64,000 bases of DNA from an uncultured Candidatus Saccharibacteria bacterium (GTDB lineage Bacteria; Patescibacteriota; Saccharimonadia; Saccharimonadales; JAGPDM01): NCBI GenBank assembly GCA_964622235.1, contig CAZUNB010000001.1, positions 9,360 to 73,359 on the forward strand, written 5' to 3'. Each line of letters begins with the position of its first letter. Positions within the stretch are counted from its first letter, which is position 1. The notes under the pieces are model-generated. The model searched no databases. It was given only the letters and a program-made list of their open reading frames with translations, and was not told the origin of the DNA. The position numbers and the translations under genes are program-made. Below, one piece after another: positions 6,056 through 55,423 of the stretch.

Positions 6056-7829
6056 CTAGAAAATCTCCTGACTGATGGCTCCAAAGTTTAGCATAGAGAC
6101 CTTTTTCGGCAAGAAGATCATCGTGGCTACCCTGCTCGACAATCTTACCGTCGTTCATGACAATAATCCGATCGAGTTTCCGAATGGTACTTAATCGGTG
6201 GGCAATTACGATTGTAGTTCGTTCTTCCATCAAGGTATCAAGTGCATCGGCAATCAAAGCCTCACTCTCGCTATCGAGTGCAGAGGTAGCTTCGTCGAGT
6301 AAAAGAATCGGTGCTTCGACTAACATGGCACGCGCGATTGCCACACGTTGCTTCTGACCACCACTAAGCTTCATACCACGTTCGCCTACCAAAGTTTCAT
6401 AACCTTTGGGTAGTTTGTCGATAAATTCCGCAGCGTGCGCGAGCTTGGCGACTCTTTTAATCTCATCCAGGCTAGCATCAGGATTTCCGTAAGCAATATT
6501 TTCACGAATACTACGGTGAAATAGTATCGGCTCTTGGCTAACGAACGCAATATTTCGACGTAGCTCGTCTTGGACAAGCTCTGATATATCTTGGTCATCA
6601 ATCAAGATTTTCCCAGAATTAATATCCATGAATCGTAGCAAGAGTTTTGTTATGGTTGTTTTCCCGCCTCCGCTAGGGCCAACCAGCCCGACTTTCTCAC
6701 CAGCCTTAATATCAATTGATAGATTTGAGAAGAGATTGCTATTTGCTTCATCATATTGAAATGAGACATTATCAAATTGAATTTTTCCCTTCGCAAAGTT
6801 TGGTGATATTGCATCTTTGTCATCCTCTAAGTCAGGAGAAGTTCGTAAAATTTTTGTCATTTCAACAGCATCACTAATCGCCTTTTCTAATCGTCTTGTG
6901 ATATTTCCAATTTCCCAAAAATCACCAAATAAACGAAATAAATAGTAGGTTGTTAGCAGTAAGACCCCAACACTAACTGTGCCGGCAATTGCTGATTTAA
7001 TTGACCAATATATAACAAAAAACTCTAGAGATATCATTAGAATACTTTGAATGAAGCGTAGATGTTCATCCCAAAACCAGCTTGTTGAGCGTTTTTTATA
7101 TCTATCTTGGCTAACTGATTCATAGCGTTTTTGTTCAAACTTCCTACGACCGAAAATTTTAATATTGGCTGTGTTTGTGATTGCATCGGCGAGCTCTGCT
7201 GTGACCGAACTATCAGCAATCGCCGCGATGCGCGAGAACTTGCTCTTATACGAACTAAGGGCAACGATTACAGACACGAATACGATAGCCCAGACAAGCA
7301 AAGTGAATCCAACAACAGGGAAGATTACTAATAAAATAATAATAAAACTAACACCTCGAATAACCATAGGCGCCAGATCCCAAAAGAATATATCTTGAAC
7401 TGATTCGAGGCTGTTAACGAACCGATTGGTCTGCGTAACTAGCGCTCCACCAAAACGATTTGAGAAAAACGAGTATGAACGTTTCTGTAATTCCGAAAAT
7501 GTTTTCTGCTCTAAATCTCTCATTGCTTTTGCCTGGAATGCAATATACGTATACGTAACAATTCTCCATAGAGCAAAAATCGCAAACAGTGATATTCCAA
7601 TATAAATTAGTAGCTGCCATAATTCATCCGCCAGTCCTGGGTTAGCGGCAAGCTGTGAAATCTTATCGAATACCTGACTATATAAATATGGTAACAGTAC
7701 TCCTTGAATTAGCACTGTGACTACCATGAGCCCTACAGATAGATAGAATGCCAGTTTATACTTATTAGCTGCATTCAAATAGTAGCGCATGGTTTCAGCT
7801 GTAATTCGTCGATTTGTTATTTTTTTCAT
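6048..7829 (-). CDS. ABC exporter, fused permease + ATPase, subunit A of a heterodimeric pair
   Basis: Same architecture and motifs as the neighbour ([35 protein letters not shown]). The two genes overlap by 8 nt, suggesting co-translation. No N-terminal C39 peptidase domain. Confidence 0.85.
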   Translation of the reverse strand: MKKITNRRITAETMRYYLNAANKYKLAFYLSVGLMVVTVLIQGVLLPYLYSQVFDKISQLAANPGLADELWQLLIYIGISLFAIFALWRIVTYTYIAFQAKAMRDLEQKTFSELQKRSYSFFSNRFGGALVTQTNRFVNSLESVQDIFFWDLAPMVIRGVSFIIILLVIFPVVGFTLLVWAIVFVSVIVALSSYKSKFSRIAAIADSSVTAELADAITNTANIKIFGRRKFEQKRYESVSQDRYKKRSTSWFWDEHLRFIQSILMISLEFFVIYWSIKSAIAGTVSVGVLLLTTYYLFRLFGDFWEIGNITRRLEKAISDAVEMTKILRTSPDLEDDKDAISPNFAKGKIQFDNVSFQYDEANSNLFSNLSIDIKAGEKVGLVGPSGGGKTTITKLLLRFMDINSGKILIDDQDISELVQDELRRNIAFVSQEPILFHRSIRENIAYGNPDASLDEIKRVAKLAHAAEFIDKLPKGYETLVGERGMKLSGGQKQRVAIARAMLVEAPILLLDEATSALDSESEALIADALDTLMEERTTIVIAHRLSTIRKLDRIIVMNDGKIVEQGSHDDLLAEKGLYAKLWSHQSGDFLDE

Positions 7830-13470: not shown

Positions 13471-15000
13471 CTATTTGATTAACCGTAAACGACGAACCAA
13501 AAATATTGATGTGGCAACTGACACAAGTGAGATAGCGATGAGCACTGTCTCTGATTGTCCTGTCTTTGGTAGCGTATTAGCTGCTCCAGAAATACCCAAG
13601 CTATTCACCGCCGTCGTGAACGGTGATTCGTAAGCACCAGAATCATAGGCTAGGCCTTGAGGGCGAACAGAGCCTCTGGCGTCTTGCGTCAGACCAGCTA
13701 TAGTGACACCTGAGTCTATAGCGGGAGAACCAGACATAAGAGCCATGGTTGGAACGTAGCCACCGTTGTTTTGGAGTGGGCCGAGAGTGGAGCCAAGGGC
13801 TGTGAGGTTGTTTTGGTCTTTAACGTGATTAAAATATGTTGAGCAAGTAGTATCGTCACTTAAATTCCCACCGCCACTGGTTAAAGAGCCGTTGAATCCA
13901 CCGCTACCACCAAAAAGTGGCGTGTAGTCGAAGAAACCCTCACAAGCATTAGGCACGCCTAAGCTTTTAATATCAGCGAGTAGTAGATTATCAGTCTCTA
14001 ACGATACGTTTGCAGTACCGCTCACTCCACCACCAGCGACGACTAAACTCGTCGAACCAAAACCGGAGGCTTGTGAACTTTCACCTCCTGCAATATCCGT
14101 AATAGTGGAGTTATTAATCTTGGCAGTTGTGGTAGAATCTTCTGCCCCGGTGTAACTTATTAAGCCGAGACCGATTGCAATTGAGGAAGTCCTGATATTG
14201 GAAATCGTTACATTTTCAAAGTTAGCATTAAGCGTGCTTGGACTTCCACCCGCTATAATGCCCCCCATAACCATAATCCCACTAGCCGTGGCTTCGCTGT
14301 CGGTGTTTTCGATATCGCTCACTGTCGTATTAGAGACAGATAGATTAAGTATGGCCTTATTATTTGTGTATACAAGAATCCCAGGTAATCCTATGCCTGC
14401 AGCTGAACTATTAAATCGGTGCACATAAGAGTTGTTTATCGAAATAGAGGTCATCACGCCGTCTACTCCATTTTCTACTCCGAAACCCGAAAGAGCCAGC
14501 GAAGCCCCCACACTAGTAGCGTTCAAGCCGTCTATCTCAATTCGATCAGCGTCTAGGTTAGCATCTTGAACACCGATACCAAACCCTCTAAAACCCGTCA
14601 CAGTGAAATCAGAAACAGTCAGCATCTCACTGGCAGTCGCTGTTATTTGAATAGTCTGATACTGGCCGTCTCCATCGATAATCGATTGCCCCGCACCAGC
14701 ACCCTTGAATGTTGCAGTTTTAGTCAGTACTGGTAGATCGGCTACCAGCGTTATCGTCCCAGCCGGAAGGTTGATAGTATCATTTACACCATCGCCAGCA
14801 GGACAATCACTACTTGTAGCAGCTTGGTCGTTAATGTTCTGGATAGCTTCACTCAGTGAGCAAGAGCTGTTTGTAGTTGTCTCGTCGTTGCCGACAGCAA
14901 CGTTGAAGCTAGCTGCGTGAGCAGGTGCTGACTGAGCAACTGAAATAATTACAGTGGCGAGCACAGCTAACGGCAAACGTACGAGATTGATATTTTTCAT
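13471..15000 (-). CDS. Secreted right-handed beta-helix surface protein with CSLREA-like N-terminal motif and LPKTG sortase anchor
   Basis: Signal peptide (AHAASF). CSLSEAIQNIN...CPAGDG motif resembles the CSLREA N-terminal domain. Gly/Ser/Thr/Asn-rich repeats typical of parallel beta-helices. C-terminal NNGGYVPT...DQRG...R..G.DSGAYES (choice-of-anchor-type segment). LPKTG plus hydrophobic helix plus RRLRLIK tail. Confidence 0.6.
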   Translation of the reverse strand: MKNINLVRLPLAVLATVIISVAQSAPAHAASFNVAVGNDETTTNSSCSLSEAIQNINDQAATSSDCPAGDGVNDTINLPAGTITLVADLPVLTKTATFKGAGAGQSIIDGDGQYQTIQITATASEMLTVSDFTVTGFRGFGIGVQDANLDADRIEIDGLNATSVGASLALSGFGVENGVDGVMTSISINNSYVHRFNSSAAGIGLPGILVYTNNKAILNLSVSNTTVSDIENTDSEATASGIMVMGGIIAGGSPSTLNANFENVTISNIRTSSIAIGLGLISYTGAEDSTTTAKINNSTITDIAGGESSQASGFGSTSLVVAGGGVSGTANVSLETDNLLLADIKSLGVPNACEGFFDYTPLFGGSGGFNGSLTSGGGNLSDDTTCSTYFNHVKDQNNLTALGSTLGPLQNNGGYVPTMALMSGSPAIDSGVTIAGLTQDARGSVRPQGLAYDSGAYESPFTTAVNSLGISGAANTLPKTGQSETVLIAISLVSVATSIFLVRRLRLIK

Positions 15001-15133: not shown

Positions 15134-15292
15134 CTATTTAAGCTTCAAACCAAGCCAAATACCTAAAATTCCGCCGATAAAGCCACCAATCACTGTCCAA
15201 CCAGACATACTAGCCGAGCCAAACAAAACTGGAATGTAGCCACCAATATAAGTTCCTGCGATTGACGTTAATAGAACTGGTTTATTGCCCAT
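15134..15292 (-). CDS. GlsB/YeaQ/YmgE-family small membrane protein (start re-assigned to the internal Met)
   Basis: MGNKPVLLTSIAGTYIGGYIPVLFGSASMSGWTVIGGFIGGILGIWLGLKL matches the Gly-rich two-helix pattern of the transglycosylase-associated (YeaQ/YmgE) family. The upstream 34 codons of the predicted ORF look non-coding. Confidence 0.45.
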   Translation of the reverse strand: MGNKPVLLTSIAGTYIGGYIPVLFGSASMSGWTVIGGFIGGILGIWLGLKLK

Positions 15293-15416
15293 ATTACATA
15301 TTCTAAACCCATATTCCTCACAGCACAAAGCTCTTTTCAGATTCAGCAAATCATAAATATGATGCATAATTTTGTAGCTAAAAAGACAATCCACGGATCA
15401 GCTGGATTTTCTATTT

Positions 15417-15534
15417 GGCTGAGAAAGGGATGAACACTCAACGATAGACTAGCTAACGCTATTCCGTCATCTCGCTAGAAGCTGTCAAATCATAGATTAT
15501 GACAACTATCTAAACCCTCTGTCGGGTTCGCATC
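15417..15534 (-). pseudogene. Degenerate tRNA-Ser-derived repeat, copy 2 (pseudo-tRNA fragment)
   Basis: Minus-strand reading ends ...GTTCATCCCTTTCTCAGCCA, mimicking the T-arm, acceptor and CCA of the adjacent tRNA-Ser. It shares the GGGATGA...CTATTCCGTC core with copies at 15591-15695 and 52022-52118, plus a CTAAACCCTCTnnCGGGTTCG motif also at 52223-52241. No 5' acceptor strand, so it cannot fold as a tRNA. Confidence 0.4.
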
Positions 15535-15590
15535 TTTTTCTCAGAAAAGAGAAAAACGCCCAAAGTCTAAAGACTTGGAAGCTCTTCTCC

Positions 15591-15695
15591 TGGCGGAGAG
15601 AGAGAGAGAGGGATGACGCTCGCTTCGTTCACTATTCCGTCGCTAAGCTCCTTACGAACCCTTTTTGCTTCGCAAAAGTCGGGTTCGAACGCTCA
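15591..15695 (-). pseudogene. Degenerate tRNA-Ser pseudogene fragment, copy 1 (3' half with (CT)n-expanded acceptor)
   Basis: Minus-strand reading is ...CAAAAAGGGTTCGTAAGG-AGCTTAGCGACGGAATAGTGAACGAAGC-GAGCGTCATCCCTC-TCTCTCTCTCTCC-GCCA. It aligns to the tRNA-Ser(CGA) segments ...TCGTGTAAGG-variable arm-GAGGGTTCGAATCCCTC-TCTCTCC-GCCA with a corrupted T-loop. It lies about 35 nt downstream of the intact tRNA. Confidence 0.5.
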
Positions 15696-15731
15696 ACAAA
15701 CTAAAAACAGCCCAAAGGGCTGCGTTTAGTT

Positions 15732-15825
15732 TGGCGGAGAGAGAGGGATTCGAACCCTCGAAGATGATTACTCACCTTACACGATTTCGAGTCGTGCGCC
15801 TTCAACCAGGCTCGGCCACCTCTCC
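15732..15825 (-). tRNA. tRNA-Ser (anticodon CGA), type II with long variable arm
   Basis: Reverse complement folds as acceptor GGAGAGG/CCTCTCC, D-arm, anticodon stem CACGA/TCGTG with loop CTCGAAA (anticodon CGA), a 20-nt variable arm, T-arm GAGGG-TTCGAAT-CCCTC, discriminator G, encoded CCA. It is followed by a CCA-rooted bipartite hairpin at 15690-15734. Confidence 0.8.
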
Positions 15826-15890
15826 ATAGCTTATGAAATTATATCAGCCTATTTCATTCACGACTATCTTGGAATCTATCGAACAAAAGC

Positions 15891-16895
15891 CTATTTATTC
15901 GAATGCCGATGTGGTAAAAACAATTTTGCGCTCAGGCCGATTCCAATAAGTGCTGGAAACCAAAATGACAAAATCCGAAAAGCTAGCACAGCGGCTAATA
16001 TCGTCGACAAAGGATGCCCGTAACTGACAAAAAATGAAGCCGTGATCGTCTCGCTCTCACCTACGCCACCAGGTATTAATGGTACAAATACTGCTAATCG
16101 CGAGAAAAAGTAACCATAGAGGCCTAGTAGATAACTAATGTCTAAATCAAATGCTCGTAAGATAAACCACAATGCTGTCCCTTCAAATATCCAAGTAGCT
16201 GAGAAAAAGAATGCCAACTGCAAAATGTCTCTAGTTTTATAACCTGACTTTTTAACCAGTTGCCAAGGCGCTAAACTAGTTTCACCGACGAACCGTTCAG
16301 AAAATTTCTGAACTTTTTCTTGTACAAAACGAGAATTCCGAGCGAGGAAAATGATTATCACACCAATAGCTAAAATAATCGGTAGAAATCCGATAATACG
16401 ACTGACAGGACTATCTCCGGGTAGTCCGTAAAATATTGTGCTTATAAGTACTGCAAATAAGAACAGTATATTCAGTGTTACAATTGCGACCGAGTAAAGA
16501 ACAACTAGAAATTTTCCAGCCAATTCAACTTGTCGATTTTCTTGCCTCATAATTCGACGCCAAACTAACAGATCACCGAGGATGATAATTTTACTAACGC
16601 CAAGCCCAGCTAGTGATTCAACCAAAGACTGCCAAAAACTGATGTGGATATCTTGGCGTTTAAAAAATTTTTGATATGGAATTACTAGCGTTGAGATTGC
16701 TAGAAGTTCACTTACGATTGCCGCAAGTAAGTAATCAAGTCTGATACTAGCTAAAATCTGGCGATTGTTGGAAAAAAACCATGCTTGATAAGCAATCGTA
16801 ATAATACCGAAAAAAATCAGGGTTATTGTCGCGCCCCGCGTGAAAAATTGTTTTTTGGACGTTGCTTTTTTGGCTTTAAGCATACCTTCTATCAT
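15891..16895 (-). CDS. Polytopic membrane protein (about 8 TM), possibly UPF0104 / lysylphosphatidylglycerol-synthase-TM-like flippase-type domain
   Basis: 334 aa and almost entirely hydrophobic helices separated by short basic loops. No soluble domain. The family call rests on topology only. Confidence 0.4.
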   Translation of the reverse strand: MIEGMLKAKKATSKKQFFTRGATITLIFFGIITIAYQAWFFSNNRQILASIRLDYLLAAIVSELLAISTLVIPYQKFFKRQDIHISFWQSLVESLAGLGVSKIIILGDLLVWRRIMRQENRQVELAGKFLVVLYSVAIVTLNILFLFAVLISTIFYGLPGDSPVSRIIGFLPIILAIGVIIIFLARNSRFVQEKVQKFSERFVGETSLAPWQLVKKSGYKTRDILQLAFFFSATWIFEGTALWFILRAFDLDISYLLGLYGYFFSRLAVFVPLIPGGVGESETITASFFVSYGHPLSTILAAVLAFRILSFWFPALIGIGLSAKLFLPHRHSNK

Positions 16896-24063: not shown

Positions 24064-24381
24064 ATGGATCCATCTCAACAACAGCCACAACTTTCAGCAG
24101 AGCAAGTGCAGAGCCAACAACTAGGATTGATTATAAGTGAGTTGGCACAGCTCAAACAAATATCTACAGCAATCTGGGGCAAGGTCGATAGTGAGATTGA
24201 TCAGATCCGGGCTGACCTTTCTCGGGTGAGTAGCGAAGTCAACCAACTTGGAACTGGCATTCGAAATGTCGAAGTTAAACTCCGTGAAACTGATGGACAA
24301 ATCGACCGCATCGAACGTTTCGAGACAATGCTTCGAAATATCGAGAAGCAAATCAACAATGTCTACTCTAAAATCCGTTAG
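24064..24381 (+). CDS. Hypothetical small coiled-coil protein
   Basis: 105 aa with a Gln-rich start and heptad-like hydrophobic spacing throughout. Confidence 0.35.
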   Translation: MDPSQQQPQLSAEQVQSQQLGLIISELAQLKQISTAIWGKVDSEIDQIRADLSRVSSEVNQLGTGIRNVEVKLRETDGQIDRIERFETMLRNIEKQINNVYSKIR

Positions 24382-25394
24382 CGCCGAAGCCTCTTATAGA
24401 AATTAAAGACCGAATACGATGGTCTGTCAAAAACCATATCTAGCATAGGATTATGCACTTTAATCTCACCGCCGAAGCCTTGCTTATACTTGGTAACTTT
24501 TTTAATAGTTGGGTAATCATCATCTGATGAACTAGCGCCGCCAATACTGTAATATTTAAGGTCCCTGCGCATGGCCTCTCTCATTGACTCCCACTGTACA
24601 AAGCTTGGCACTCGGAGCTTACGACCTTCGTCGTCTGTTCCTGAGAGGAGGGAGTGGGCGATTGGGCCGTAACTAACAATTAACTTACTACTGATTACCT
24701 TATCCTCTTTGCGAGCTTCGACAAGATAGGCATGCTTGAGCTTATCTGAAATATCGAACAAATTCTGATAATAATCCTTTTTAAAAATCGCAAAACCTTG
24801 TTTCTGTGCGGTAAATTCGAGTAACCGAAAAAAATCATCCAAGCCGGATTTTATATCTGGCTGGATGCTAACTTCAACGCCTTTTTTTGCGCCGTAACGA
24901 ACTGAATAGCGGGTGTTTTTATCAAAACGTGCAAACACCTCATCTTCATTGCTCAAAGGAACGATCATCTCACCACGCGGTCGAAAAGAAGCTTCGGATG
25001 TTACAAACTTTGGTACATCGCGCCAACCACCATCACTCATCATTGAGAAATCGCCATCAACGTCTAGGCGTGAAAAAACAACTTTTCTTTGACTGTTCTT
25101 TGCGTAAAATTCTTTCAGTTTTTTACTGATAAAATTTTGTTGCTGTCTATTTGGAGCTTGTTTAAAAACTTGACAGAAAGGAATATACAGTTAGCTTCGT
25201 CTAGATGGCAGAGGGTGAGATATTGCTTGAAAACAACTCAAGACCTCATCATCTTCACGGAAAACAAACCGATGAACTTCAGATTTATACGACTGCCACT
25301 GCCCATAAAACCAGGCCTGGGTAAACATAGTGCGATCATAAATTTCAAGAGGTCGATAGTCCTGTTCGTTTGTAATTTCATCGAGATAATACAT
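24378..25394 (-). pseudogene. FemAB-family (peptidoglycan interpeptide-bridge aminoacyltransferase) paralogue interrupted by one in-frame TAA
   Basis: The 67-aa ORF at 25191-25394 and the 221-aa ORF at 24378-25043 are in the same frame. They are separated only by a TAA at 25191-25193 (...PSRRS*LYIPFCQVFK...). The combined length is about 339 codons. Fem-like motifs include QAWFYGQW and SYGPIAHSLLSGTDDEGRKLRVPSFVQWESMREAMRRDLKYYSIGG. Confidence 0.55.
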
Positions 25395-25437: not shown

Positions 25438-26484
25438 GTGATTTATGGCATACTAAAGCGCATGAGCTCGACACAGACAATTGATCAAATCGGTAAGGAA
25501 GATTGGAATCAGTTTGTCGCATCTACGGATAACGGCTCAATTCACCAGACAACTATGTGGGCAGACTTTCAAAAAACTTTAAAAAACCGCGGCGAAGTTA
25601 TTGGGGTTGGCTTATTAAAAAATGACAAAGTAGTCGCAACAGCATTGGCGGTTCGGATGCAAACGCGGCTGCCTAACCTATATTGGTACTACTGTGCGCG
25701 TGGGCCAGTCTATACCAGTACAGATGAAGGTAGTGAGATTTTAGCAGCACTTGAAAAAACTGTAGCTCAAAAGAGAGGAGCGTTCCTGCGCTATGACCCC
25801 TATGTTCTGAGCGATGACGAGTTTGATTACAAGACCAGTAAAACCCAGATTGCTGACAAACAAAACTTTCACCCACTCGACAGCTTACTGCTCGATATTT
25901 CACCACCAACAAACGAGATCTTTGCAAGCATGAAGAAAAGAACCAGGTACAACATTCGCATGTCAGAAAAACACGGAGTCACGGTAAAAAGCTACGATGG
26001 TGAAAGCGCTCAGCCAAAACAAATTGATAGTTTCTATAAGCTACTAACCAGAACTGCTGATCGTGATAATTTCACTTCACACAGTAAAAGTTATTATGCT
26101 AATTTTATGAGCTCACTTGGCGCTAATGCGCAGCTATTTATCGCATCACTTGATGATCAGCCAATTGCAGCTAGCATCTTAACGACTTTCGGTGATACTG
26201 CAATCTACTATTTTGCAGCTTCGTCTGATAAGCCTGAACATCGTAAGATTATGCCGAATTATTTACTTCAAGCCGAAATGATACGACACGCAAAAATGAA
26301 GAATTGCACAGACTATGACCTATTTGGCATTGCGCCGGAGAATGAGCCAAATCATAAATATGCTGGCATTGGTCACTTTAAAATGATGTTTGGTGGTCGG
26401 CGAGTCAAGTATCAAGCAGGCAAAGATATCATACTAAGCAAAGCTAAAACTAAGCTGTACTGGGCTGCAAAGCGTATACTGTAA
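25438..26484 (+). CDS. FemAB-family aminoacyltransferase (FemX/MurM-like, peptidoglycan bridge formation)
   Basis: 348 aa. QTTMWADFQK N-terminal motif, AIYYFAASSDKPEHRKIMPNYLLQAEMIRHAKMKNCTDYDLFGI core (compare YYGGSDDEYRNLMPNYLLHWEAI...YDFGG). Transcribed divergently from the interrupted paralogue. Confidence 0.75.
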   Translation: MIYGILKRMSSTQTIDQIGKEDWNQFVASTDNGSIHQTTMWADFQKTLKNRGEVIGVGLLKNDKVVATALAVRMQTRLPNLYWYYCARGPVYTSTDEGSEILAALEKTVAQKRGAFLRYDPYVLSDDEFDYKTSKTQIADKQNFHPLDSLLLDISPPTNEIFASMKKRTRYNIRMSEKHGVTVKSYDGESAQPKQIDSFYKLLTRTADRDNFTSHSKSYYANFMSSLGANAQLFIASLDDQPIAASILTTFGDTAIYYFAASSDKPEHRKIMPNYLLQAEMIRHAKMKNCTDYDLFGIAPENEPNHKYAGIGHFKMMFGGRRVKYQAGKDIILSKAKTKLYWAAKRIL

Positions 26485-35772: not shown

Positions 35773-38700
35773 ATGCAAACAATCGAACAAAATCAACCTG
35801 AGACTATGCAACACCCTGACCACAGTGGTATCACTGCTGAAATCATCGCAGGAATCGGAGCCCTTGCCAGTCTTGATTTAGCAGTCAATAAACCTGGGTG
35901 GATTCGAAACATATCACCGCAGGATGTTATTGCTGGAGACTCTTTATCAGAATCTCTCGGTTTGCCCGGCGAGAGAGAGCCGCATACAGACGACTGGCTA
36001 ACGGACGAGGACCGAACTGCAACTCAGGCAGCAATTAAGCGCATAACTAAGGAACAAAAAGAACACCAGAAAAAGCGGTTAGCCGAAGCCGAGCAAGAAG
36101 AAAACCCGGAAGCAAGAAGGGCACTAGTTCTAGACGCGTGGACACACAACCCAGACACAGCTAAAAGAGTGGTGGGTTTTTTAAACGAAAGAGCAAAGCG
36201 AACACCTTCAAGCCGCCCATACTCAAGTCCAGACAATCCGGTAATGTCTGACGATGAAATTATTGAAGCAAGCGAATCTTCAAAAGGATTTCAAAGAGCG
36301 GTTGAATGGTGTACGACTCTTCGACCTCGTTTAATTCTAGAACGCGGGACGAAAGAAATCCTTGAGAGTATGGTTGATAAAAATGCTCTCACCCAGTCTG
36401 TTGTTAGTATGGCTGATGCCGATCCTGATTCTTTTGTATATCACCTCGAAGATATCCGAGACATAATTGATGACCCAGAGGCATTCGAAGGTGCCGTCCA
36501 AAAGGCGGAGAGAAACCTACCAGAACAAACGCTAGAACGACTTACTCAAATGGTTATTGACGAAAAAGCAGCAGGCAAGCCATCAAGCCAAATGGAGGAT
36601 CTTGCAAGATCAATGCTTGTACGCATGCGTGATAAACCATTAAATGCAGAGACGCTAGCAAACATTATTCAAGCCAAAATATGGACAAAAGAGGAGGTAA
36701 CTAAGCAAGTTTCTGGCGTTGCATCAACAGCACACGGTATTAGCTACTATAACGACTTCGGCTACGACAGACTATCCAAAGTAATTTCACCAGAGATGGC
36801 TGAAACAGCTAAACAGGCAGCCATAACCGCGATTGAAGACAACCCCAAAATGCTTTGCAGAGTGGCAGAAATAGATAGCAACCAGTTTCATAACGATGAA
36901 CTGGTTACTAATGGCGGGGTCATGAGCCCTGAACTACTCAACAAAACTGCAGAAAAACTACTGACCGATCCAACGCAATCATTTGGATTTTTCACTGGAG
37001 AATATCTCTCAGAACTAACCCCCGAAATAGGAAGCAGGGTAATTGATCGAATTATCGAGCTCAGCACCGACTACTATCCGTCAGAAGAAATCATGGAAAA
37101 AGCAAGCGATGAACAGCTCGGTTCAATTCTTGGTAACTTTACCCAGCATAAGCCCGGATTTTTACTTTCAGTGGTGGAAAATAATGAACGAGCGCTGGCG
37201 ATAGTCTGTGCAATGCCGCCGGACAATAAGCTAGAAATAATGGGTAGATTAAGCACGTATAACTTAATTAAATCGTCTGAAACATTGGAAACAATTGGGG
37301 TCCCAGCTGAAATAGTCGCTCAACAAATCAAATACTCATTTGACCGTAGCCCAGACATGAGTAGCCTGGTCTCAATTACAGATAAAGGCTTGCTCCCTCC
37401 TGACGACATTAGTGGGATGCGCGATCGACTAGTCGAAGCAGTAGCATCCGGCGAGACACGACCAGAGCAGTTTGTTGCAAACCGCGACCTCGATATTGAG
37501 GTTTTTAGCGATGAAGAATTAACGGCAGCAATAGCTGCAATAGGTGAAGCTAATCCTGCGGCTGGTTTTGCTTGCGCACTTAAGAACCGGGGATATTATT
37601 CAAAAACTGAGATTGAAAAGATTATCAGTACCGCAATATCTGATCATCTCGATGATGATTTATTGTTAAGTGAAGTCTTTGCGAATGTCTACAGCGGTAA
37701 AGAACCTATAGTCAGCATTGTTGGTGGTTCTCGAGTTGCAGATTTCGTCCAAGGACTATCAAGCAAGCAGCTTGACGGCATAGCCTACCGCCAAAACAAG
37801 ATCGCTGCGACGATAGGGGTAGAGGGAACGAAAGCCTTAGCTCATAAAATTGTACAAGAAAATCCAGCTAGCTTACTACTTGAAGAGTTCCGTGATTTCT
37901 ATGCGTCATTTTATCCTGATTTTGACCCAGATAGTTTTAAGGTAGAAGATTTACCAGAAAACACCGAAGTAAAAGATCTAGGTGGAAAATATCTAGTCGA
38001 TAAATGGAAGAAATTACAAAGTTCAACTTCCGAAATTAGGAGGTCAGAGATAGCAACTGAACTATCCTCATTGTATCAAAAAATTAATGACATAAAACTT
38101 AATGGCAATGCAGAAGGCGCCCAAAAAATAGTTGACTCGCTTAATGGCACCAAGGTAAGCCGGAGAGAAGTAATTGGATCTCTTTGGCTGTTTACTGAGC
38201 TGGGTGAAAATATGCCAGAATCAGTTGAAGCTTACAGTGATTTAGAAGAAATGCTAGTTGTCTCACTTGCAGATAAACTCGGTATGGAGGAGCCCAATAA
38301 AGAGCAGGTCAAACTATTAGTTGAAAGTGGTTTCCGCGTGTATAGCTTTGGTGTTTACGCCAACGAACACATGAACCCAGCACATAAAGAGGTGCTAGGT
38401 GCAATCCTAAAGTCTAGCTTGGATGAGAATTTTACAGAATGGAAATACGGTGGGGATACTGAAGACGATCTTGAGCATCTTAAGTCTAGCGGTCTCGTAC
38501 CCGAGAGTTTAACGTTAGACCAGTACCTAGCTTGGCAACATGACGAAACCACCGAAACGAGCATCGGGCTAGAACTTGGAGCATCAACAGCGCTTGCAGC
38601 CATCTCAGACACCATGACCGGCTACCAACCAGAACTCTTAATGACAGCTGCAGAAACAGACTATCAAGAGATAAAAGGTGAACTGCAAAGTATGGGGAAA

Positions 38701-39576
38701 ACTTTTGGACAAGTCCACGGAAAGCTTAAAAGGCTAAGAGTACTGAGAGATGATGCTCTAGAGGGAAGCAGAGAATACTCAAGAATTTCACTTAGTATAG
38801 ACGAACTTGACGAAGAGATTAAAGACCTCAACCAAGAAAAGTCTCAACTGCAACAATTGTTTGACGTGAAAACTTTACTAGATTTGTCGCTTAATCAGAT
38901 AAATGCAGGGAAAGTACAGGATGAAAAGGGAAGAGACAGAGACATTGGCGACCTACTAAATCGTTTATCAAAAAATACGCCGAAGTCTTACGCATTTATT
39001 ATCGGGTCCGTCGAAGATACCCTGGAGAACTTTAGAAAACAAAATAGCGGTGTAATGAATGTCTCCGTGGTAGACACTGCTGATTTATCAACAACCATCG
39101 AAATTGGGGCCTATCCTGCCGCATCGTGTCAACACTTTGATGGTGGTGTGGTAAATGAAGCCCTACTTGGATACACGGAGCCAACAACAAAACTATTGGT
39201 CGCCAAGAACGACAAAGGCACCCCAGTAGCAAGATCCGTCTTTAGGCTCATGACCAACAGTGAAGGCCAAACGTCTCTTCATCTTGAAAATGTGTATGCG
39301 GCGGAGCTAAGTGATGGAGTAATTTCCGCCATACTTATGGCAGCACATGCAAAAGCACAGGCAATGGGAGTCTCTCTTTTCGTCTCTTCAAAATCACAAG
39401 ATGCGGCCGGGAATATGATTCCAAATATTTTTGCGACATCTCCGATCCCACAAAAATCTACCGATACAAAGCTACGATCTACGGCAAGTATTCGCGCTCC
39501 ATCTATCTATGTAGACTCGAACGGAGGCTCAACGCAAAGACAGTACACATTAAATAAACTAGCTCTAATAGAGTAA
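35773..39576 (+). CDS. Large (1267 aa) soluble hypothetical protein, predominantly alpha-helical, no recognisable catalytic motif
   Basis: Uninterrupted 3.8-kb ORF with no TM helix, signal peptide or P-loop. It is acidic with a coiled-coil stretch around res 1020-1060 (EIKDLNQEKSQLQQLFD). Flanked by AT-rich promoter-like DNA upstream. Confidence 0.5.
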   Translation: MQTIEQNQPETMQHPDHSGITAEIIAGIGALASLDLAVNKPGWIRNISPQDVIAGDSLSESLGLPGEREPHTDDWLTDEDRTATQAAIKRITKEQKEHQKKRLAEAEQEENPEARRALVLDAWTHNPDTAKRVVGFLNERAKRTPSSRPYSSPDNPVMSDDEIIEASESSKGFQRAVEWCTTLRPRLILERGTKEILESMVDKNALTQSVVSMADADPDSFVYHLEDIRDIIDDPEAFEGAVQKAERNLPEQTLERLTQMVIDEKAAGKPSSQMEDLARSMLVRMRDKPLNAETLANIIQAKIWTKEEVTKQVSGVASTAHGISYYNDFGYDRLSKVISPEMAETAKQAAITAIEDNPKMLCRVAEIDSNQFHNDELVTNGGVMSPELLNKTAEKLLTDPTQSFGFFTGEYLSELTPEIGSRVIDRIIELSTDYYPSEEIMEKASDEQLGSILGNFTQHKPGFLLSVVENNERALAIVCAMPPDNKLEIMGRLSTYNLIKSSETLETIGVPAEIVAQQIKYSFDRSPDMSSLVSITDKGLLPPDDISGMRDRLVEAVASGETRPEQFVANRDLDIEVFSDEELTAAIAAIGEANPAAGFACALKNRGYYSKTEIEKIISTAISDHLDDDLLLSEVFANVYSGKEPIVSIVGGSRVADFVQGLSSKQLDGIAYRQNKIAATIGVEGTKALAHKIVQENPASLLLEEFRDFYASFYPDFDPDSFKVEDLPENTEVKDLGGKYLVDKWKKLQSSTSEIRRSEIATELSSLYQKINDIKLNGNAEGAQKIVDSLNGTKVSRREVIGSLWLFTELGENMPESVEAYSDLEEMLVVSLADKLGMEEPNKEQVKLLVESGFRVYSFGVYANEHMNPAHKEVLGAILKSSLDENFTEWKYGGDTEDDLEHLKSSGLVPESLTLDQYLAWQHDETTETSIGLELGASTALAAISDTMTGYQPELLMTAAETDYQEIKGELQSMGKTFGQVHGKLKRLRVLRDDALEGSREYSRISLSIDELDEEIKDLNQEKSQLQQLFDVKTLLDLSLNQINAGKVQDEKGRDRDIGDLLNRLSKNTPKSYAFIIGSVEDTLENFRKQNSGVMNVSVVDTADLSTTIEIGAYPAASCQHFDGGVVNEALLGYTEPTTKLLVAKNDKGTPVARSVFRLMTNSEGQTSLHLENVYAAELSDGVISAILMAAHAKAQAMGVSLFVSSKSQDAAGNMIPNIFATSPIPQKSTDTKLRSTASIRAPSIYVDSNGGSTQRQYTLNKLALIE

Positions 39577-51259: not shown

Positions 51260-51931
51260 CTACAGCTTACCGAGCAAGTCCTCTAGTGCACTTACGTTCT
51301 CGATAATGTGTTTTACTCTCAATTTTTCGGCTTCATGTGTGTTTAAGTGGCCAGTTAGAACAACAACCGCCTCAACTCCTGCAGCTTGAGCCATAAGTAC
51401 ATCATTTTTTGCATCACCAACCATAACAGTCTCTTCTGGTAAAATATTCTGTTCTTTTAAAATTCGATTTATACCTTCAGGGTGCGGCTTGGCATAAAGT
51501 GCGCTGCTGAGATCATGTGGTGTAACTATTTGAGAGAATACCTGTGGTATATTAAAATTTGGAAAAATTATTTCTCGTAGTAGCTTTGAACTAGCACCAG
51601 TTGCAATCGCAATCTTGTATTTTCTAGATAGACGCTTTAAGACTCCAATAGAGCCTGGAACTAGCGTCAAACAATCTACAAAGCTGTTTCCAAAGAGGTG
51701 CTCCTCGTAGATAACGATTGCCTCGGCTAGTAGTTCAGGACTGTCTTTAAGCAGCTCGGCCAACTCTTCTTGGTGTGAAGATCCCCACTTTGCCTCAATC
51801 CGTTTTTTCTCTTCTTTTTGAGATAAATGTATACCCACACTTAGCAAAGCTTGGTGGTAACACTTATAATATCCCTCGGTTGAGCCAAGTGTGAAGACAT
51901 CATCCCAGTCAAAAATTATTAGTTTAATCAT
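51260..51931 (-). CDS. HAD-superfamily hydrolase, subfamily IA (phosphoglycolate-phosphatase-like)
   Basis: Motif I IIFDWDDVFT, motif II ATGAS, motif IV VMVGDAKNDVLMAQAAG. Length 223 aa. Confidence 0.7.
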   Translation of the reverse strand: MIKLIIFDWDDVFTLGSTEGYYKCYHQALLSVGIHLSQKEEKKRIEAKWGSSHQEELAELLKDSPELLAEAIVIYEEHLFGNSFVDCLTLVPGSIGVLKRLSRKYKIAIATGASSKLLREIIFPNFNIPQVFSQIVTPHDLSSALYAKPHPEGINRILKEQNILPEETVMVGDAKNDVLMAQAAGVEAVVVLTGHLNTHEAEKLRVKHIIENVSALEDLLGKL

Positions 51932-52021
51932 TTATCCAATAATATCACGCAACTAACATTGATATGTCTCCTGAGAAGGGTTGTACTTTTAACGGATGAA
52001 TAGAATACAGATTTTTAACAA

Positions 52022-52241
52022 AGGAGAGAGGGATGACGCTCGATTCGCTCACTATTCCGTCGGCCCGAGTCTCACAAGTAAACTTGCTCGATTATCCTTC
52101 CTTGCGAACCCTTTTTTGACTTTGTTAAATGAGAGGTATAACACTGCGATGTTAGACTATGGCTCATCGCCATATTCCAACATCTTCGCTATGCTGCTCA
52201 AATCAAATAGATTTGAGCTAGTCTAAACCCTCTCGGGTTCG
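52022..52241 (-). pseudogene. tRNA-Ser-derived degenerate repeat (same family as 15417-15695)
   Basis: GAGAGAGGGATGACGCTCGaTTCGcTCACTATTCCGTCG...CTTgCGAACCCTTTTTTG (52022-52118) is about 85% identical to 15601-15675. CTAAACCCTCTCGGGTTCG at 52223-52241 matches 15510-15530. It lies 3' of tRNA-Ser(GCT) on the same strand. The ORF-track hit 51996-52226 (+) lies over it and is regarded as spurious. Confidence 0.45.
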
Positions 52242-52296
52242 TAGCCTGAACAATCCCAACCAATGTAAAAGCCCACCATTTGGTGGGTTTTTACAT

Positions 52297-52389
52297 TGGC
52301 GGAGAGAGAGGGATTCGAACCCTCGCGGGGCCGTGAAGCCCCCTACAGCTTTAGCAAAGCCGCCCCTTCAGCCACTTGGGTACCTCTCC
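52297..52389 (-). tRNA. tRNA-Ser (anticodon GCT), type II
   Basis: Reverse complement: GGAGAGG-TA-CCC...GGG-G-CGGCT-TTGCTAA-AGCTG-(21-nt variable arm)-GAGGG-TTCGAAT-CCCTC-TCTCTCC-G-CCA. Followed in minus orientation by the hairpin CCAATGTAAAAaCCCACCaaatGGTGGGcTTTTACATTGG (52259-52299). Confidence 0.8.
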
Positions 52390-52507
52390 TCGTCGTCACA
52401 TCAAGCTTCTGTGGTTTCGTTTTAGTCGTCGACTAAAAACTACTCCGCTGATGCTCCTCTTGAATTTTCAAACAGCTTCGCTTGGTTTGAAAATTCATGG
52501 CTGTACG

Positions 52508-52584
52508 TGGTGTACCCGGGGGGATTCGAACCTCCGACCTCTTGTACCGCAAACAAACGCTCTATCCAGCTGAGCTACGGGTAC
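52508..52584 (-). tRNA. tRNA-Arg (anticodon GCG), 77 nt
   Basis: Reverse complement: GTACCCG-TA-GCTC-AGCTGGATA-GAGC-G-TTTGT-TTGCGGT-ACAAG-AGGTC-GGAGG-TTCGAAT-CCCCC-CGGGTAC-A-CCA. The T-stem has one A-C mismatch (GGAGG/CCCCC) and GCG is an uncommon bacterial Arg anticodon, so confidence is moderate. Confidence 0.6.
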
Positions 52585-52645
52585 ACGCAAGCGTAGCAAC
52601 TATTGTAGCGCTAAACTACTGATAATAAAAGCAATCTGCGCATAT

Positions 52646-53260
52646 TTAGAGGTGTAGTTGGTTGATGGTTTTATCAATAAAATTCATTTCACGCTCTTCA
52701 AGTGGCAGATGGCGTTGTAAAATCGCGACAACTAGATCAACCTCTGCCTTCGTCATGTAAGCTTCGGTAGGCAAGCCAAAGCGTTTCAAAGGCCGGAAAG
52801 TTAGCAAATACAATCCACGCTCAGCTTGAATTGAAAATGAACGAAATGTTTCGAACGGAAACAAGGCATCGCCGATGGAGATCCCATCATCGTCGATGAT
52901 ATATGTTCGACTATTCGGCTTAGCATTGATAAAATACAATAAACCACCACTTAAGAGTAGTAAAACAACGACACTAAAGATGTCACGTTGCCAGTAAATT
53001 ATACCCGCGCTGATTGCAAAAACCACTGACACGAAGCCTGCGTACCACCCTATACCTCGTTGATGTGAAATATACTCGCTGGCTTGCCAGCTAACTTCTT
53101 GCGGTTGATCCGGCCCCTTGACATCTGGCATTTCTGTTTGCAAATTGTCGTTACTGTTGTCATCATCTTCAGCTTCAAAACTCCAGCCAGCAGAATCATC
53201 CTGTTGATTGTCGGCAACTTTTGCATCCTCAGCTTGGTTGTTTGTCTTTTCCTCTGCCAT
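52646..53260 (-). CDS. Hypothetical membrane protein (acidic disordered N-terminus, 2 TM, C-terminal soluble domain)
   Basis: 204 aa. Asp/Glu/Gln-rich first about 60 aa, two hydrophobic helices (GWYAGFVSVVFAISAGIIYW, FSVVVLLLLSGGLLYF), and a C-terminal about 90 aa with possible bacterial-PH-like character. Confidence 0.4.
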   Translation of the reverse strand: MAEEKTNNQAEDAKVADNQQDDSAGWSFEAEDDDNSNDNLQTEMPDVKGPDQPQEVSWQASEYISHQRGIGWYAGFVSVVFAISAGIIYWQRDIFSVVVLLLLSGGLLYFINAKPNSRTYIIDDDGISIGDALFPFETFRSFSIQAERGLYLLTFRPLKRFGLPTEAYMTKAEVDLVVAILQRHLPLEEREMNFIDKTINQLHL

Positions 53261-53475
53261 ATCATAAGCAGTATAACAAAACTAGACAAAAACCACACTA
53301 GCAAGAGTACCGTTATATCCTTTGAGATGATATAATCCAATGTACGTTTCGTTCGAGCGAAATACATCAAACTGAAAAGGTGACCAGACTAGTGTCAGGT
53401 AAAACTTGATCTAAATAGCGAACTGGTATACTTAACCAGTGAGTGTCGCGGAGCGAGGTCAACTCGCAACAACGT

Positions 53476-53566
53476 GGAGAGGTGACCGAGCGGTTGAAGG
53501 TACCGGTCTTGAAAACCGGCAAGGCGTAACCCGTCTTCGAGGGTTCGAATCCCTCCCTCTCCGCCA
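53476..53566 (+). tRNA. tRNA-Ser (anticodon TGA), type II
   Basis: GGAGAGG-TG-ACC-GAGCGGTTGAA-GGT-A-CCGGT-CTTGAAA-ACCGG-(19-nt variable arm)-GAGGG-TTCGAAT-CCCTC-CCTCTCC-G-CCA. ORF-track entries 53367-53567 and 53395-53580 (-) overlap it and are spurious. Confidence 0.85.
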
Positions 53567-53605
53567 ATTAGATAGCCCACCGCTTAGGTGGGTTCTCTAA
53601 TTGGC
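53564..53605 (+). terminator. CCA-rooted bipartite hairpin (terminator-like) after tRNA-Ser(TGA), followed by a truncated pseudo-tRNA-Ser repeat (53606-53675)
   Basis: CCAATTAGAtagCCCACCgcttaGGTGGGttcTCTAATTGG: an outer 9-bp stem beginning with the tRNA CCA, plus an inner GC stem CCCACC/GGTGGG. The same architecture follows the other two tRNA-Ser genes. Downstream GCGCAGCAAAAAGGGTTCGgtgg matches the CAAAAAGGGTTCG core of the pseudo-tRNA family. Confidence 0.45.
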
Positions 53606-53721
53606 GTTTAGCAATCCGAGAACCCGTATTTTGCGCAGCAAAAAGGGTTCGGTGGAGTGATCAGAATCGAGAGACAAAAAAAGTTTACTTTTTCCAGAGA
53701 TGATTGAATGAAAGTTCGTAG

Positions 53722-54165
53722 GTGCAAGCCGAAGAATCAACACCTCATGTATTAATACCGTATACTAAACCAATGCCAAAAAAACCAATCCAAAAGCGCT
53801 ATGTTGCGCTAGCCTGGGGAACAGTACTATTACACACAGCAATCATGACTTGGTTTTGGATCGGGGCATTCTTGGTCTTTAACGGCTATCCCGAATTTGC
53901 ACTACAGCAAGTCGCCTACGTTGTCATAGTCGTTGGGGTTCATGAACTGTATGGCAGCTGCCCGTTCACAGTACTCGAGATTTGGGCACGTAAAAAATCA
54001 GGTATCAAAGACCGAGAAGTAGAGACATACTACGGATACTACATCTTCTGGAAGTTGTTTCACTATAAAGCCAGTATCCCGTTTCTAAGGCGATTCGTCA
54101 TCTTGTTCAAAATTTTACCTGGTATTTCACCACTTGTTCTAATAATCCAGCAAATATTGAACTAG
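53722..54165 (+). CDS. Hypothetical integral membrane protein (3-4 TM)
   Basis: 147 aa with hydrophobic helices at about 30-55, 62-82 and 120-145. No motif recognised. Confidence 0.4.
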   Translation: MQAEESTPHVLIPYTKPMPKKPIQKRYVALAWGTVLLHTAIMTWFWIGAFLVFNGYPEFALQQVAYVVIVVGVHELYGSCPFTVLEIWARKKSGIKDREVETYYGYYIFWKLFHYKASIPFLRRFVILFKILPGISPLVLIIQQILN

Positions 54166-54874: not shown

Positions 54875-54904
54875 TTGAGTTAGGTGATAGTTTTTGTGTA
54901 TACT
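54875..54904 (+). promoter_or_regulatory. Sigma-70-like promoter candidate for the Hsp20 gene (TTGAGT-18 nt-TATACT)
   Basis: TTGAGT at 54875-54880, an 18-nt spacer, TATACT at 54899-54904, about 65 nt upstream of the ATG at 54971. No CIRCE element is present here. Confidence 0.25.
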
Positions 54905-54970
54905 ACTGATAATACAAAGACCAAAAAACTTTTCAGGTGGAAAAACAAGACAACTAATGGGGGAGAGTGC

Positions 54971-55423
54971 ATGGCACGTAAACAACAGAATGATGATTTA
55001 TTAATCGATGATGAGCTAACAGCAGCTTTTCTGGGTGATGATCAGTCAGTAACCGCTGACGACAATAGTACAAACGATGACTGGAATGAAGAAGAAAGTA
55101 TTCCGGGGCAACTAGCCGTTGACGTTTATGAGACTCGTGAGAAGGTTTTTGTGATTGCGCCGATTGCTGGCGTTAACAAAGGTGATCTCGACGTTAGTAT
55201 CTCTGACAATACGCTGACTATCCAGGGAACTCGTTCGGTCAATACTGACGGGGCAGAGAACTTTTACCTGCAGGAAAGTTACTGGGGAGATTTTTCGCGA
55301 AGCATCACAATGCCAGTACCGGTTAAAGAGGACGAAATCGATGCAGTCCTCAAGGACGGTGTCTTGACAATTAGCTTTACCAAAGTCAAACAAGACACAA
55401 TTAAGAAGATTGAGATTAAGTAA
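54971..55423 (+). CDS. Hsp20/alpha-crystallin family small heat-shock protein; start set at MARKQQ
   Basis: Alpha-crystallin domain (LAVDVYETREKVFVIAPIAGVNKGDLDVSISDNTLTIQG...FSRSITMPVPVKEDEIDAVLKDGVLTISFTK). GGGGGA-type SD 8 nt upstream of the ATG at 54971. The 29 codons upstream in the ORF track lack an RBS. Confidence 0.85.
   Translation: MARKQQNDDLLIDDELTAAFLGDDQSVTADDNSTNDDWNEEESIPGQLAVDVYETREKVFVIAPIAGVNKGDLDVSISDNTLTIQGTRSVNTDGAENFYLQESYWGDFSRSITMPVPVKEDEIDAVLKDGVLTISFTKVKQDTIKKIEIK

Follow-up and report, generated by a model that had tools for sequence, protein, structure and literature searches.

Behind the tRNA-Tyr genes of the Escherichia coli tyrT operon stand 178-bp repeats, each of which contains the last 19 bp of tRNA-Tyr. 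These RtT repeats (rttR; Rfam family RF00391) have been known since the first tyrT sequences, i.e., for 45 years, and are usually seen as an enterobacterial curiosity. A discrete rtT RNA of 171 nt from E. coli tyrT was reportedly described by Bösl and Kersten in 1991, and we know of no accepted function or origin of the repeats. Another E. coli RNA from the region behind a tRNA is 3'ETS-leuZ, a small RNA (sRNA) cut from the tRNA 3' external transcribed spacer (ETS) by the tRNA-processing machinery. According to two reports, rtT RNA derives from processing of the tyrT transcript and its function is unknown (bioRxiv 10.1101/2024.07.17.603846; PMC7542023), and Erwinia strains differ in their RtT copies through gain, loss and replacement by tRNAs (PMC7542023). 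Literature searches for RtT-like elements outside the enterobacteria gave mostly unrelated papers on "RTT". Here we analysed 64,000 nt (hereafter the window) of an uncultured Candidatus Saccharibacteria bacterium (Saccharimonadales, candidate phyla radiation [CPR]; contig CAZUNB010000001.1, positions 9,360 to 73,359), in which a tRNA-Ser(CGA) gene on the minus strand is followed by two segments. In an initial annotation these were taken for progressively decayed pseudo-tRNA-Ser copies. We consider it fairly likely that they are RtT-type tRNA-linked repeat units, like those of E. coli tyrT.

The E. coli K-12 tyrT-tyrV-rttR region was a positive control for RF00391, which matched four units there (one plus three, 133-138 bits), each consisting of GGGGAAGG-ATGAGAAGCTTCGACC-AAGGTTCGA, a body and ATCCTTCCCCCACCACCA. 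Like these, the five units found in the window (A to E; Table 1) lie behind a tRNA gene on the same strand, with A and B behind tRNA-Ser(CGA), C and D behind tRNA-Ser(GCT) and E behind tRNA-Ser(TGA), and the tandem pairs A+B and C+D compare with the one plus three units of E. coli. In both cases the unit terminates in the last ~19 nt of the tRNA, from the start of the T loop through CCA; this direct copy measures 24 nt in A (including GCCA and a CT expansion), 16 nt in B (including GCCA) and 12 nt in D, and is degenerate in C and E. In both cases, too, the tRNA T arm and acceptor 3' strand recur in inverted orientation on the 5' side of the unit and pair with the 3' copy (helix P1 of the Rfam consensus). 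A AUGAGAAC-type motif is present in unit B as AUGCGAAC, and AUGCGAACC of the same unit stands at the place of the RF00391 consensus AUGAGAACC. A further common motif, ...GCGAAGCGA...ATCC, is located near the 3' junction of those window units that are classified as type II below. The E. coli repeats are linked to tRNA-Tyr, whereas those in this Saccharimonadales genome are linked to tRNA-Ser; the window units have two distinct body types, most copies being truncated, and their bodies are not detectably homologous to those of E. coli by RF00391 or by profile hidden Markov models (HMMs). Moreover, each window unit has its own terminator-like hairpin, whereas the E. coli tyrT array has one Rho-dependent terminator inside it.

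The inverted copy was examined by comparing the 5' part of each unit with the 3' region of the adjacent tRNA. None of 500 shuffles did as well as unit B and two of 500 did as well as unit A, in which the copy is partial; the test was not significant for C and E. A metagenome scan with the 3' end common to the three tRNA-Ser genes yielded 120 loci spread over many lineages, several being G+C-rich, and the same test gave 0/500 for each of four of these loci with tRNA-Ser (L135, L093, L139 and L064), for one with tRNA-Arg (L058) and for E. coli (tRNA-Tyr). At L135 (1124-1297), the other positive control, RF00391 itself scored 45.4 bits against a gathering score of 45. Unit A and the L093 unit share the 14-mer GAGCGTTCGAACCC, and both deviate in the same way from a perfect inverted copy (z = 5.1, 0/400 shuffles). 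By the inverted-copy results and the AUGCGAACC and GAGCGTTCGAACCC correspondences, the window units therefore show an RtT architecture whose ends were rebuilt from tRNA-Ser.

The initial annotation had also stated that neither segment possesses a 5' acceptor strand, which is wrong for the second one: the 5' strand CUGAGAAA of unit B (15537-15544) can pair over 8 bp with UUUCUCAG just before CCA. Adjoining pairs form between GAUG and CAUC and between AACCC and GGGUU, giving 8+4+5 bp in the minimum free energy (MFE) fold, which at -45.8 kcal/mol (z = -4.9) was not equalled by any of 200 shuffles. In the alignment of type I units, to which B belongs, 95% of the cells are paired in the predicted structure, and compensatory double changes occur at seven pairs, a number reached by 0/500 shuffles (slid controls gave 0-2) and coming from about three independent lineages with a structure derived from the same sequences.

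Against an expectation of 0.85 in 64 kb, six occurrences of the tRNA-end-like 11-mer ATCCCTCTCTC (at most one mismatch) were counted, namely at the three tRNA-Ser 3' ends and in units A, B and D, and the whole 450-nt region is identical base for base in two independent assemblies (L147 and L148). Because of this identity it is no assembly artefact, and together with the excess of the 11-mer it shows that the observation is real. Several elements named in the initial annotation were recovered as described. ARAGORN and Rfam agreed on the tRNA-Ser(CGA) gene, and the hairpin behind it has a G+C-rich stem and a T run (terminator scan, 15707-15723). The first segment does end in a CT-expanded acceptor strand and GCCA (15591-15614). 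Its tract, (CT)7.5, compares with (CT)4 in the tRNA itself and is thus a 6-nt slippage expansion. The second segment terminates in CATCCCTTTCTCAGCCA (15416-15432).

The view that these segments are non-functional pseudogenes, i.e., whole tRNA-Ser copies of a tandem array eroding in place, has in its favour that tRNA-Ser 3'-terminal sequence ends each unit, that the distal copy B is the more diverged and that other lineages often have intact tRNA-Ser genes in tandem. Yet significant similarity of the two segments to the tRNA was limited to their terminal 16-24 nt (T loop to CCA). The features read as an anticodon-arm remnant, a variable-arm-sized spacer and a corrupted T arm are not supported, as with the last 20 nt removed the unit bodies align to the tRNA no better than shuffles do: 59 of 300 shuffles scored as well as A against tRNA-Ser(CGA) and 44 of 300 as well as B, and neither body exceeded shuffles against any of the three tRNA-Ser genes. 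A MAFFT alignment that combined the tRNA and both units was uninformative. No second tRNA-like match was obtained with the Rfam tRNA model RF00005 at E ≤ 10, nor any additional ARAGORN call. Neither residual similarity beyond the 3' terminus nor a match to the tRNA model, either of which would mark a tRNA pseudogene, was present in A or B. Coding potential was considered as well and rejected, the open reading frames (ORFs) of the units being short and not conserved between copies or species.

The relatives of A and B argue in the same direction. Exact GACGGAATAG and near-exact CGAACCCGAC motifs, common to A and B, pointed to units C, D and E, and BLAST and alignments separated the five into type I (B and C) and type II (A, D and E, the last with a type II-like 5' half and a degenerate 3' end). 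A covariance model of type I (CM R1) matched only B and C in the window. A and B are consequently not successive stages in the decay of the adjacent tRNA but two unit types, each with closer relatives at other tRNA-Ser loci. The 39-nt core of A is 95% identical to that of D, and the two depart from every tRNA-Ser in the same way; because of these shared differences, A and D must be copies of each other and not independent products of decay.

A sister species (protein identity ~75%), represented by a Candidatus Saccharimonadales metagenome-assembled genome (MAG), was reached via the flanking genes, five of whose proteins are 73-92% identical; in the genome scan with the tRNA pattern this MAG was the sole match. 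It has one type I unit behind tRNA-Ser(CGA) and another behind tRNA-Ser(GCT), and since the two share 98% identity over 112 nt, intragenomic gene conversion between them is indicated. Behind its tRNA-Ser(TGA) is a type II unit (E2), 78-83% identical to D of the window, which stands at a different locus. In BLAST the units grouped as A-D-E-E2 and B/C-C2-L001u, C2 being the sister-species counterpart of C. The positions of the units are partly non-orthologous between the two species, with differences in presence and absence, and the type of terminator travels with the type of unit; in the sister species, type II units are preceded by a terminator of the same type as the tRNA-Ser(CGA) hairpin of the window (the TGA locus on L011, with L010, from a third species, compared). 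The hairpin behind unit B has an ortholog behind a sister-species unit (L001, about 7350-7385).

Between the two species the unit cores are 78-90% identical, whereas four-fold degenerate sites of the five flanking genes are only 39-56% identical. C and C2 are 82% identical overall and about 90% across the 3' 75 nt. Beyond the units no sequence aligned between the species, and after C/C2 none did so until the next promoter. The cores are conserved above the neutral level, which is the opposite of free decay. Two further relatives gave limited comparisons, the contigs of a species with 91% identity (L009) and of the third species (L010) stopping in or just past the tRNA. At L010:1374-1422 the tRNA-Ser(CGA) terminator is followed by GGTCTATCGTGATC, like the 3' part of type I units (TAGTCTATCGTTGA); this may be a deletion variant of a type I unit, and the contig stops there.

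With significant tRNA likeness confined to the 16-24 nt from the T loop to CCA, and with paralogous and orthologous loci placing both segments in conserved non-tRNA units, which comes essentially to the refuting outcomes named in the initial annotation, decay in situ is largely refuted, and we regard it as improbable. It would predict neither two unit families over three loci and two species, with cores well above synonymous-site conservation, nor the derived sequence shared by A and D, and an inverted 5' copy with compensatory changes is unexpected from erosion. What survives of the proposed decaying tandem tRNA array is tandem DNA derived from tRNA-Ser 3' ends with an expanded CT tract; the decay of whole tRNA copies does not.

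The direct repeats also recall attachment (att) sites. Tandem direct repeats of a tRNA 3' end from the T loop onwards, behind an intact tRNA, are found with tRNA-integrating islands and cis-mobilizable elements (CIMEs) as well, and the units could be scars (attL/attR, CIME-like) of elements integrated by a tyrosine integrase acting at the T loop, in which internal deletions left the ends together with displaced tRNA 3' ends and the terminators of these. The repeat from the T loop to CCA does bound the insert, and the stretch in question is said, after work by Williams in 2002, to be the classical identity block of T-loop-type att sites. Accretion in tandem, with a separate terminator-like hairpin for each unit, and the occurrence of the terminator-plus-unit module at different tRNA-Ser loci in the two species would fit as well. 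However, the inserts are only ~100-130 nt long, no recombinase or intact element was found, and Pfam searches of 23 larger and a few smaller ORFs in ~10 kb around each locus revealed no integrase or transposase domain. Two unit-core patterns had zero matches in 2.9 million viral contigs, and the body junctions show no duplicated overlap sequence. Unlike att repeats, the units include the tRNA end in inverted orientation and show conservation between the species, and neither this arm, nor the conservation above the neutral level, nor the like architecture of the E. coli tyrT operon, which to our knowledge is not known as an att scar, would be explained. We therefore give this explanation little credence. 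An att site in the anticodon loop was also tried and rejected, the alignment of the tRNA with B from the anticodon loop to the 3' end being insignificant once the terminal 20 nt were removed.

Several of the 120 metagenomic loci consist of a tRNA, a terminator, a 130-170-nt unit and a partial copy of the tRNA end starting ...AATCC, and in every RtT-like unit the terminal copy begins within the T loop, at ATCC, and runs on to include the acceptor strand. Homologs of types I and II were found in none of the 120 by BLAST, CM R1 or nhmmer. The bodies of the metagenomic RtT-like units are heterogeneous and align with one another too badly to give a reliable consensus structure. Tandem repetition is seen in E. 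coli and also at L080 (+, 1327-1700) and L071 (+, 362-800), with two units each; at L080 the terminator is repeated too. The architecture behind tRNA-Arg at L058 (+, about 1123-1260) has ends which match tRNA-Arg. At L059 (560-1000, minus strand) an intact tRNA-Ser is directly preceded by a tRNA-Ser(GGA) copy that is complete except for an RtT-like body, which interrupts its T loop exactly behind GGTTCGA. At L093 (7840-8160, minus strand) a leader and a tRNA-Ser 5' part are duplicated, and GGTCGA in the D loop of this duplicate is followed by a second, near-identical body. Neither locus has a target duplication at the body junctions, and across all units the junctions read GGTTCG(A)/.../ATCC, the slash marking the border of the body. 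These two loci, from unrelated lineages, suggest that the body behaves as an insertion into GGTYCGA/A and that duplicated tRNA pieces supply the ends. They also suggest that the idea of tRNA copies is partly to be rehabilitated, since duplicated copies can be the raw material from which such units start.

Selfish, non-autonomous mobile insertions, comparable to miniature inverted-repeat transposable elements (MITEs) or palindrome-associated transposable elements (PATEs), could be considered; they would target GGTTCGA/A of T loops and do nothing for the host, and recent spread would explain why they are conserved. Apart from the exact insertions at L059 and L093, this would account for the recurrence of the junctions GGTTCGA/C... 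and .../ATCC across tRNA-Tyr, tRNA-Ser and tRNA-Arg in distant lineages and for the differences in presence and position between the sister species; gain and loss of RtT are likewise described for Erwinia strains (PMC7542023). MITEs and REP doublet-forming hairpins (REPINs) are similarly short, non-coding and multicopy, with inverted terminal sequences, hairpin potential and turnover between strains. In contrast to them, the ends of the window units copy the adjacent tRNA, the copies occur only at tRNA-Ser loci (five units in 64 kb), and no partner such as a REP-associated tyrosine transposase (RAYT) or other transposase was seen; Pfam scans near the units gave no candidate transposase, and no other partner search was made. 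The orthologous C and C2 were retained with patchy, domain-specific conservation, and junk should not last long in a very small CPR genome that is subject to deletion pressure. The T-loop insertion itself is read from two loci in unrelated lineages. We judge this rather unlikely, if somewhat less so than decay or att scars; a selfish T-loop-targeting module would overlap with the story of their origin.

Against an RtT-type identity several results have to be set. RF00391 matched none of the units A-E even at E ≤ 10 (15250-15950 and 51900-53800), so that its gathering score of 45 bits was not reached; profile HMMs (nhmmer) of RtT-like units missed the window units, and those of the window units missed the RtT-like units. 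Pairwise body scores were mostly marginal (A-L093, z = 5.1; A-Ec1, z = 3.5; C-Ec2, z = 3.8; the remainder not significant). Because the profile HMMs failed both ways and the body similarities are mostly marginal, the likeness to RtT may reflect convergence, one mechanism having generated both, and not homology. At least one defining part is missing from each of the units A, C, D and E, the fold of A is no better than that of shuffles (z = -0.8), and no consensus fold was obtained for type II units (-0.17 kcal/mol), to which the few lineages behind the type I covariation must be added. The conservation could stem from recent exchange of a mobile element rather than from host selection. Finally, we can only infer that the units are transcribed, because a strong terminator follows each tRNA and no promoter is evident before the units. 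On balance, the units are built like RtT and would work like it, and we do not claim them as members of RF00391 at the sequence level; common descent with that family would be a further step.

We regard the units as a divergent RtT-like repeat in a CPR genome that probably gives rise to a processed small RNA. A full unit opens with the acceptor 3' strand and T arm of the neighbouring tRNA in inverted orientation, and a short loop follows. Next stands the T-stem 5' strand in direct orientation, together with the beginning of the T loop, and then a variable body rich in hairpins. The unit closes with the remaining tRNA sequence, again in direct orientation: the remainder of the T loop, the 3' strands of T stem and acceptor, and CCA. 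In RNA, pairing between the inverted and the direct copies would fold the unit into a compact structure with several branches and a ...GCCA tail like that of a tRNA; unit B has all of these parts, and A, D and E are deletion derivatives. The units may share transcription with the tRNA-Ser genes or be transcribed immediately downstream of these. Given their tRNA-like 3' ends, they might be trimmed by the machinery of tRNA end maturation to discrete sRNAs of ~110-130 nt, as happens to E. coli rtT RNA. RNase P might in addition accept unit B, whose 7-8-bp helix precedes G and CCA, as a substrate. sRNAs of the 3'ETS-leuZ type would be comparable in that a non-coding RNA arises from sequence right behind a tRNA, if the units are indeed processed in this way; such trailers, however, lie before the terminator and have no copy of the tRNA end, whereas the window units are separated from the tRNA by a terminator. 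At the DNA level, repeated tRNA ends and shared bodies would allow unequal crossing-over, gene conversion, deletion and (CT)n slippage, by which units could have been shuffled among the three tRNA-Ser loci.

Table 1. Positions of the tRNA-Ser(CGA) gene, the repeat units and the associated hairpins in the window.
Feature	Position	Strand	Basis
Intact tRNA-Ser(CGA) with encoded CCA	15732-15825	-	ARAGORN; Rfam RF00005 tRNA, 53.4 bits
Intrinsic-terminator-like hairpin AACTAAACGCAGCCCTTTGGGCTGTTTTTAGTTT, 3' of tRNA-Ser(CGA)	15698-15731	-	Terminator scan
Unit A, type II, 107 nt	15591-15697	-	Sequence; 95% identity to unit D over 39 nt
Unit A, 5' portion: truncated inverted arm and T-arm-like hairpin GTTCGAACCC...GGGTTCG	15655-15690	-	
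Unit A, body	15615-15654	-	
Unit A, 3' end: GAGCGTC-ATCCC(TC)7CGCCA, direct copy from tRNA T loop to CCA	15591-15614	-	
(CT)7.5 tract within the 3'-end copy of unit A	15596-15610	-	Sequence; identical in L147 and L148
Hairpin with U-rich tail 3' of unit A, terminator-like (not flagged by the consensus terminator scan)	15546-15590	-	Fold of 15550-15699; sequence
Unit B, type I, 129 nt	15416-15544	-	MFE fold; inverted repeat; CM R1, 93 bits
Unit B, inverted arm CTGAGAAAAAGATGCGAACCC, followed by T-stem 5' half GAGGGTT	15524-15544	-	
Unit B, structured body	15432-15512	-	
Unit B, direct copy of tRNA end, ATCCCTTTCTCAGCCA	15416-15431	-	
Hairpin with T run 3' of unit B	15380-15410	-	Sequences compared
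Unit C, type I, behind tRNA-Ser(GCT) (52297-52389) and terminator (52262-52296)	52124-52261	-	CM R1, 137 bits
Unit D, type II, directly behind C, ending in ATCCCTCTCTCC	52023-52123	-	BLAST/alignment; ATCCCTCTCTC search
Unit E, behind tRNA-Ser(TGA) (53476-53566) and terminator (53567-53602)	53603-53746	+	91% identity to A over 32 nt

Some observations were made on the surroundings of these loci. Downstream of unit B, a conserved 52-aa glycine-zipper membrane protein is encoded (15134-15292, minus strand; 92% identical in the sister species), which gene callers lengthen to 77-86 aa via an upstream start that overlaps the hairpin behind unit B; none of its homologs (P0012, P0013) was found beside a tRNA-Ser, and hence no additional loci were gained. 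A 509-aa LPKTG-anchored surface protein (13471-15000, minus strand) and a 1267-aa ORF (35773-39576, plus strand) had no Pfam match. Directly upstream of tRNA-Ser(CGA) lies a gene (15891-16895, minus strand) for a protein with only the LPG_synthase_TM (MprF flippase-like) domain, and two genes of the FemAB family, a family of aminoacyl-tRNA-dependent transferases, are located ~9 kb from this tRNA (24378-25043, minus strand; 25438-26484, plus strand). Any link of these genes to tRNA-Ser-like RNAs would be pure speculation. The spacer between tRNA-Arg(GCG) and tRNA-Ser(GCT) (52390-52507, minus strand) is 118 nt long and contains two hairpins; that of the sister species (L011:4757-4795) is 39 nt long and does not align with it. 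In the relatives L011 and L019, arrays of T4SS_pilin genes lie upstream of the HSP20 gene, which in the window is at 54884-55423. Sub-threshold matches to the Rfam model of the Xanthomonas sRNA sX4 (RF02223; at most 51 bits, where the gathering score is 70) were obtained at 53462-53660 (plus strand) and 15663-15827 (minus strand) of the window and at L080, L066, L134 and L093, each comprising a tRNA-Ser with its downstream region, and the model seems to describe tRNA-Ser with its trailer.

A divergent RtT-like repeat in a CPR genome is a new variation on a known but unexplained element. For annotation it calls for caution, as "pseudo-tRNA 3' fragments" beside tRNA genes are not necessarily decay products or att sites. 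The architecture of inverted and direct copies beyond the enterobacteria, with ends that fit the respective tRNA, suggests that this tie to tRNA genes is a general phenomenon, and the units provide comparative material for two ideas, that of processed regulatory or decoy RNAs and that of a T-loop-targeting mobile module. More tentatively, and with considerable doubt on our part, RtT-type units might be pan-bacterial structured RNAs which mimic tRNA ends, or host-domesticated T-loop insertion modules, with the ends rebuilt for each tRNA (Tyr in E. coli, Ser and Arg elsewhere) and maintained by purifying selection even in a reduced CPR genome. If this is true, the rtT of E. coli, unexplained for 45 years, would be one member of an ancient and widespread system linked to tRNA 3' ends.

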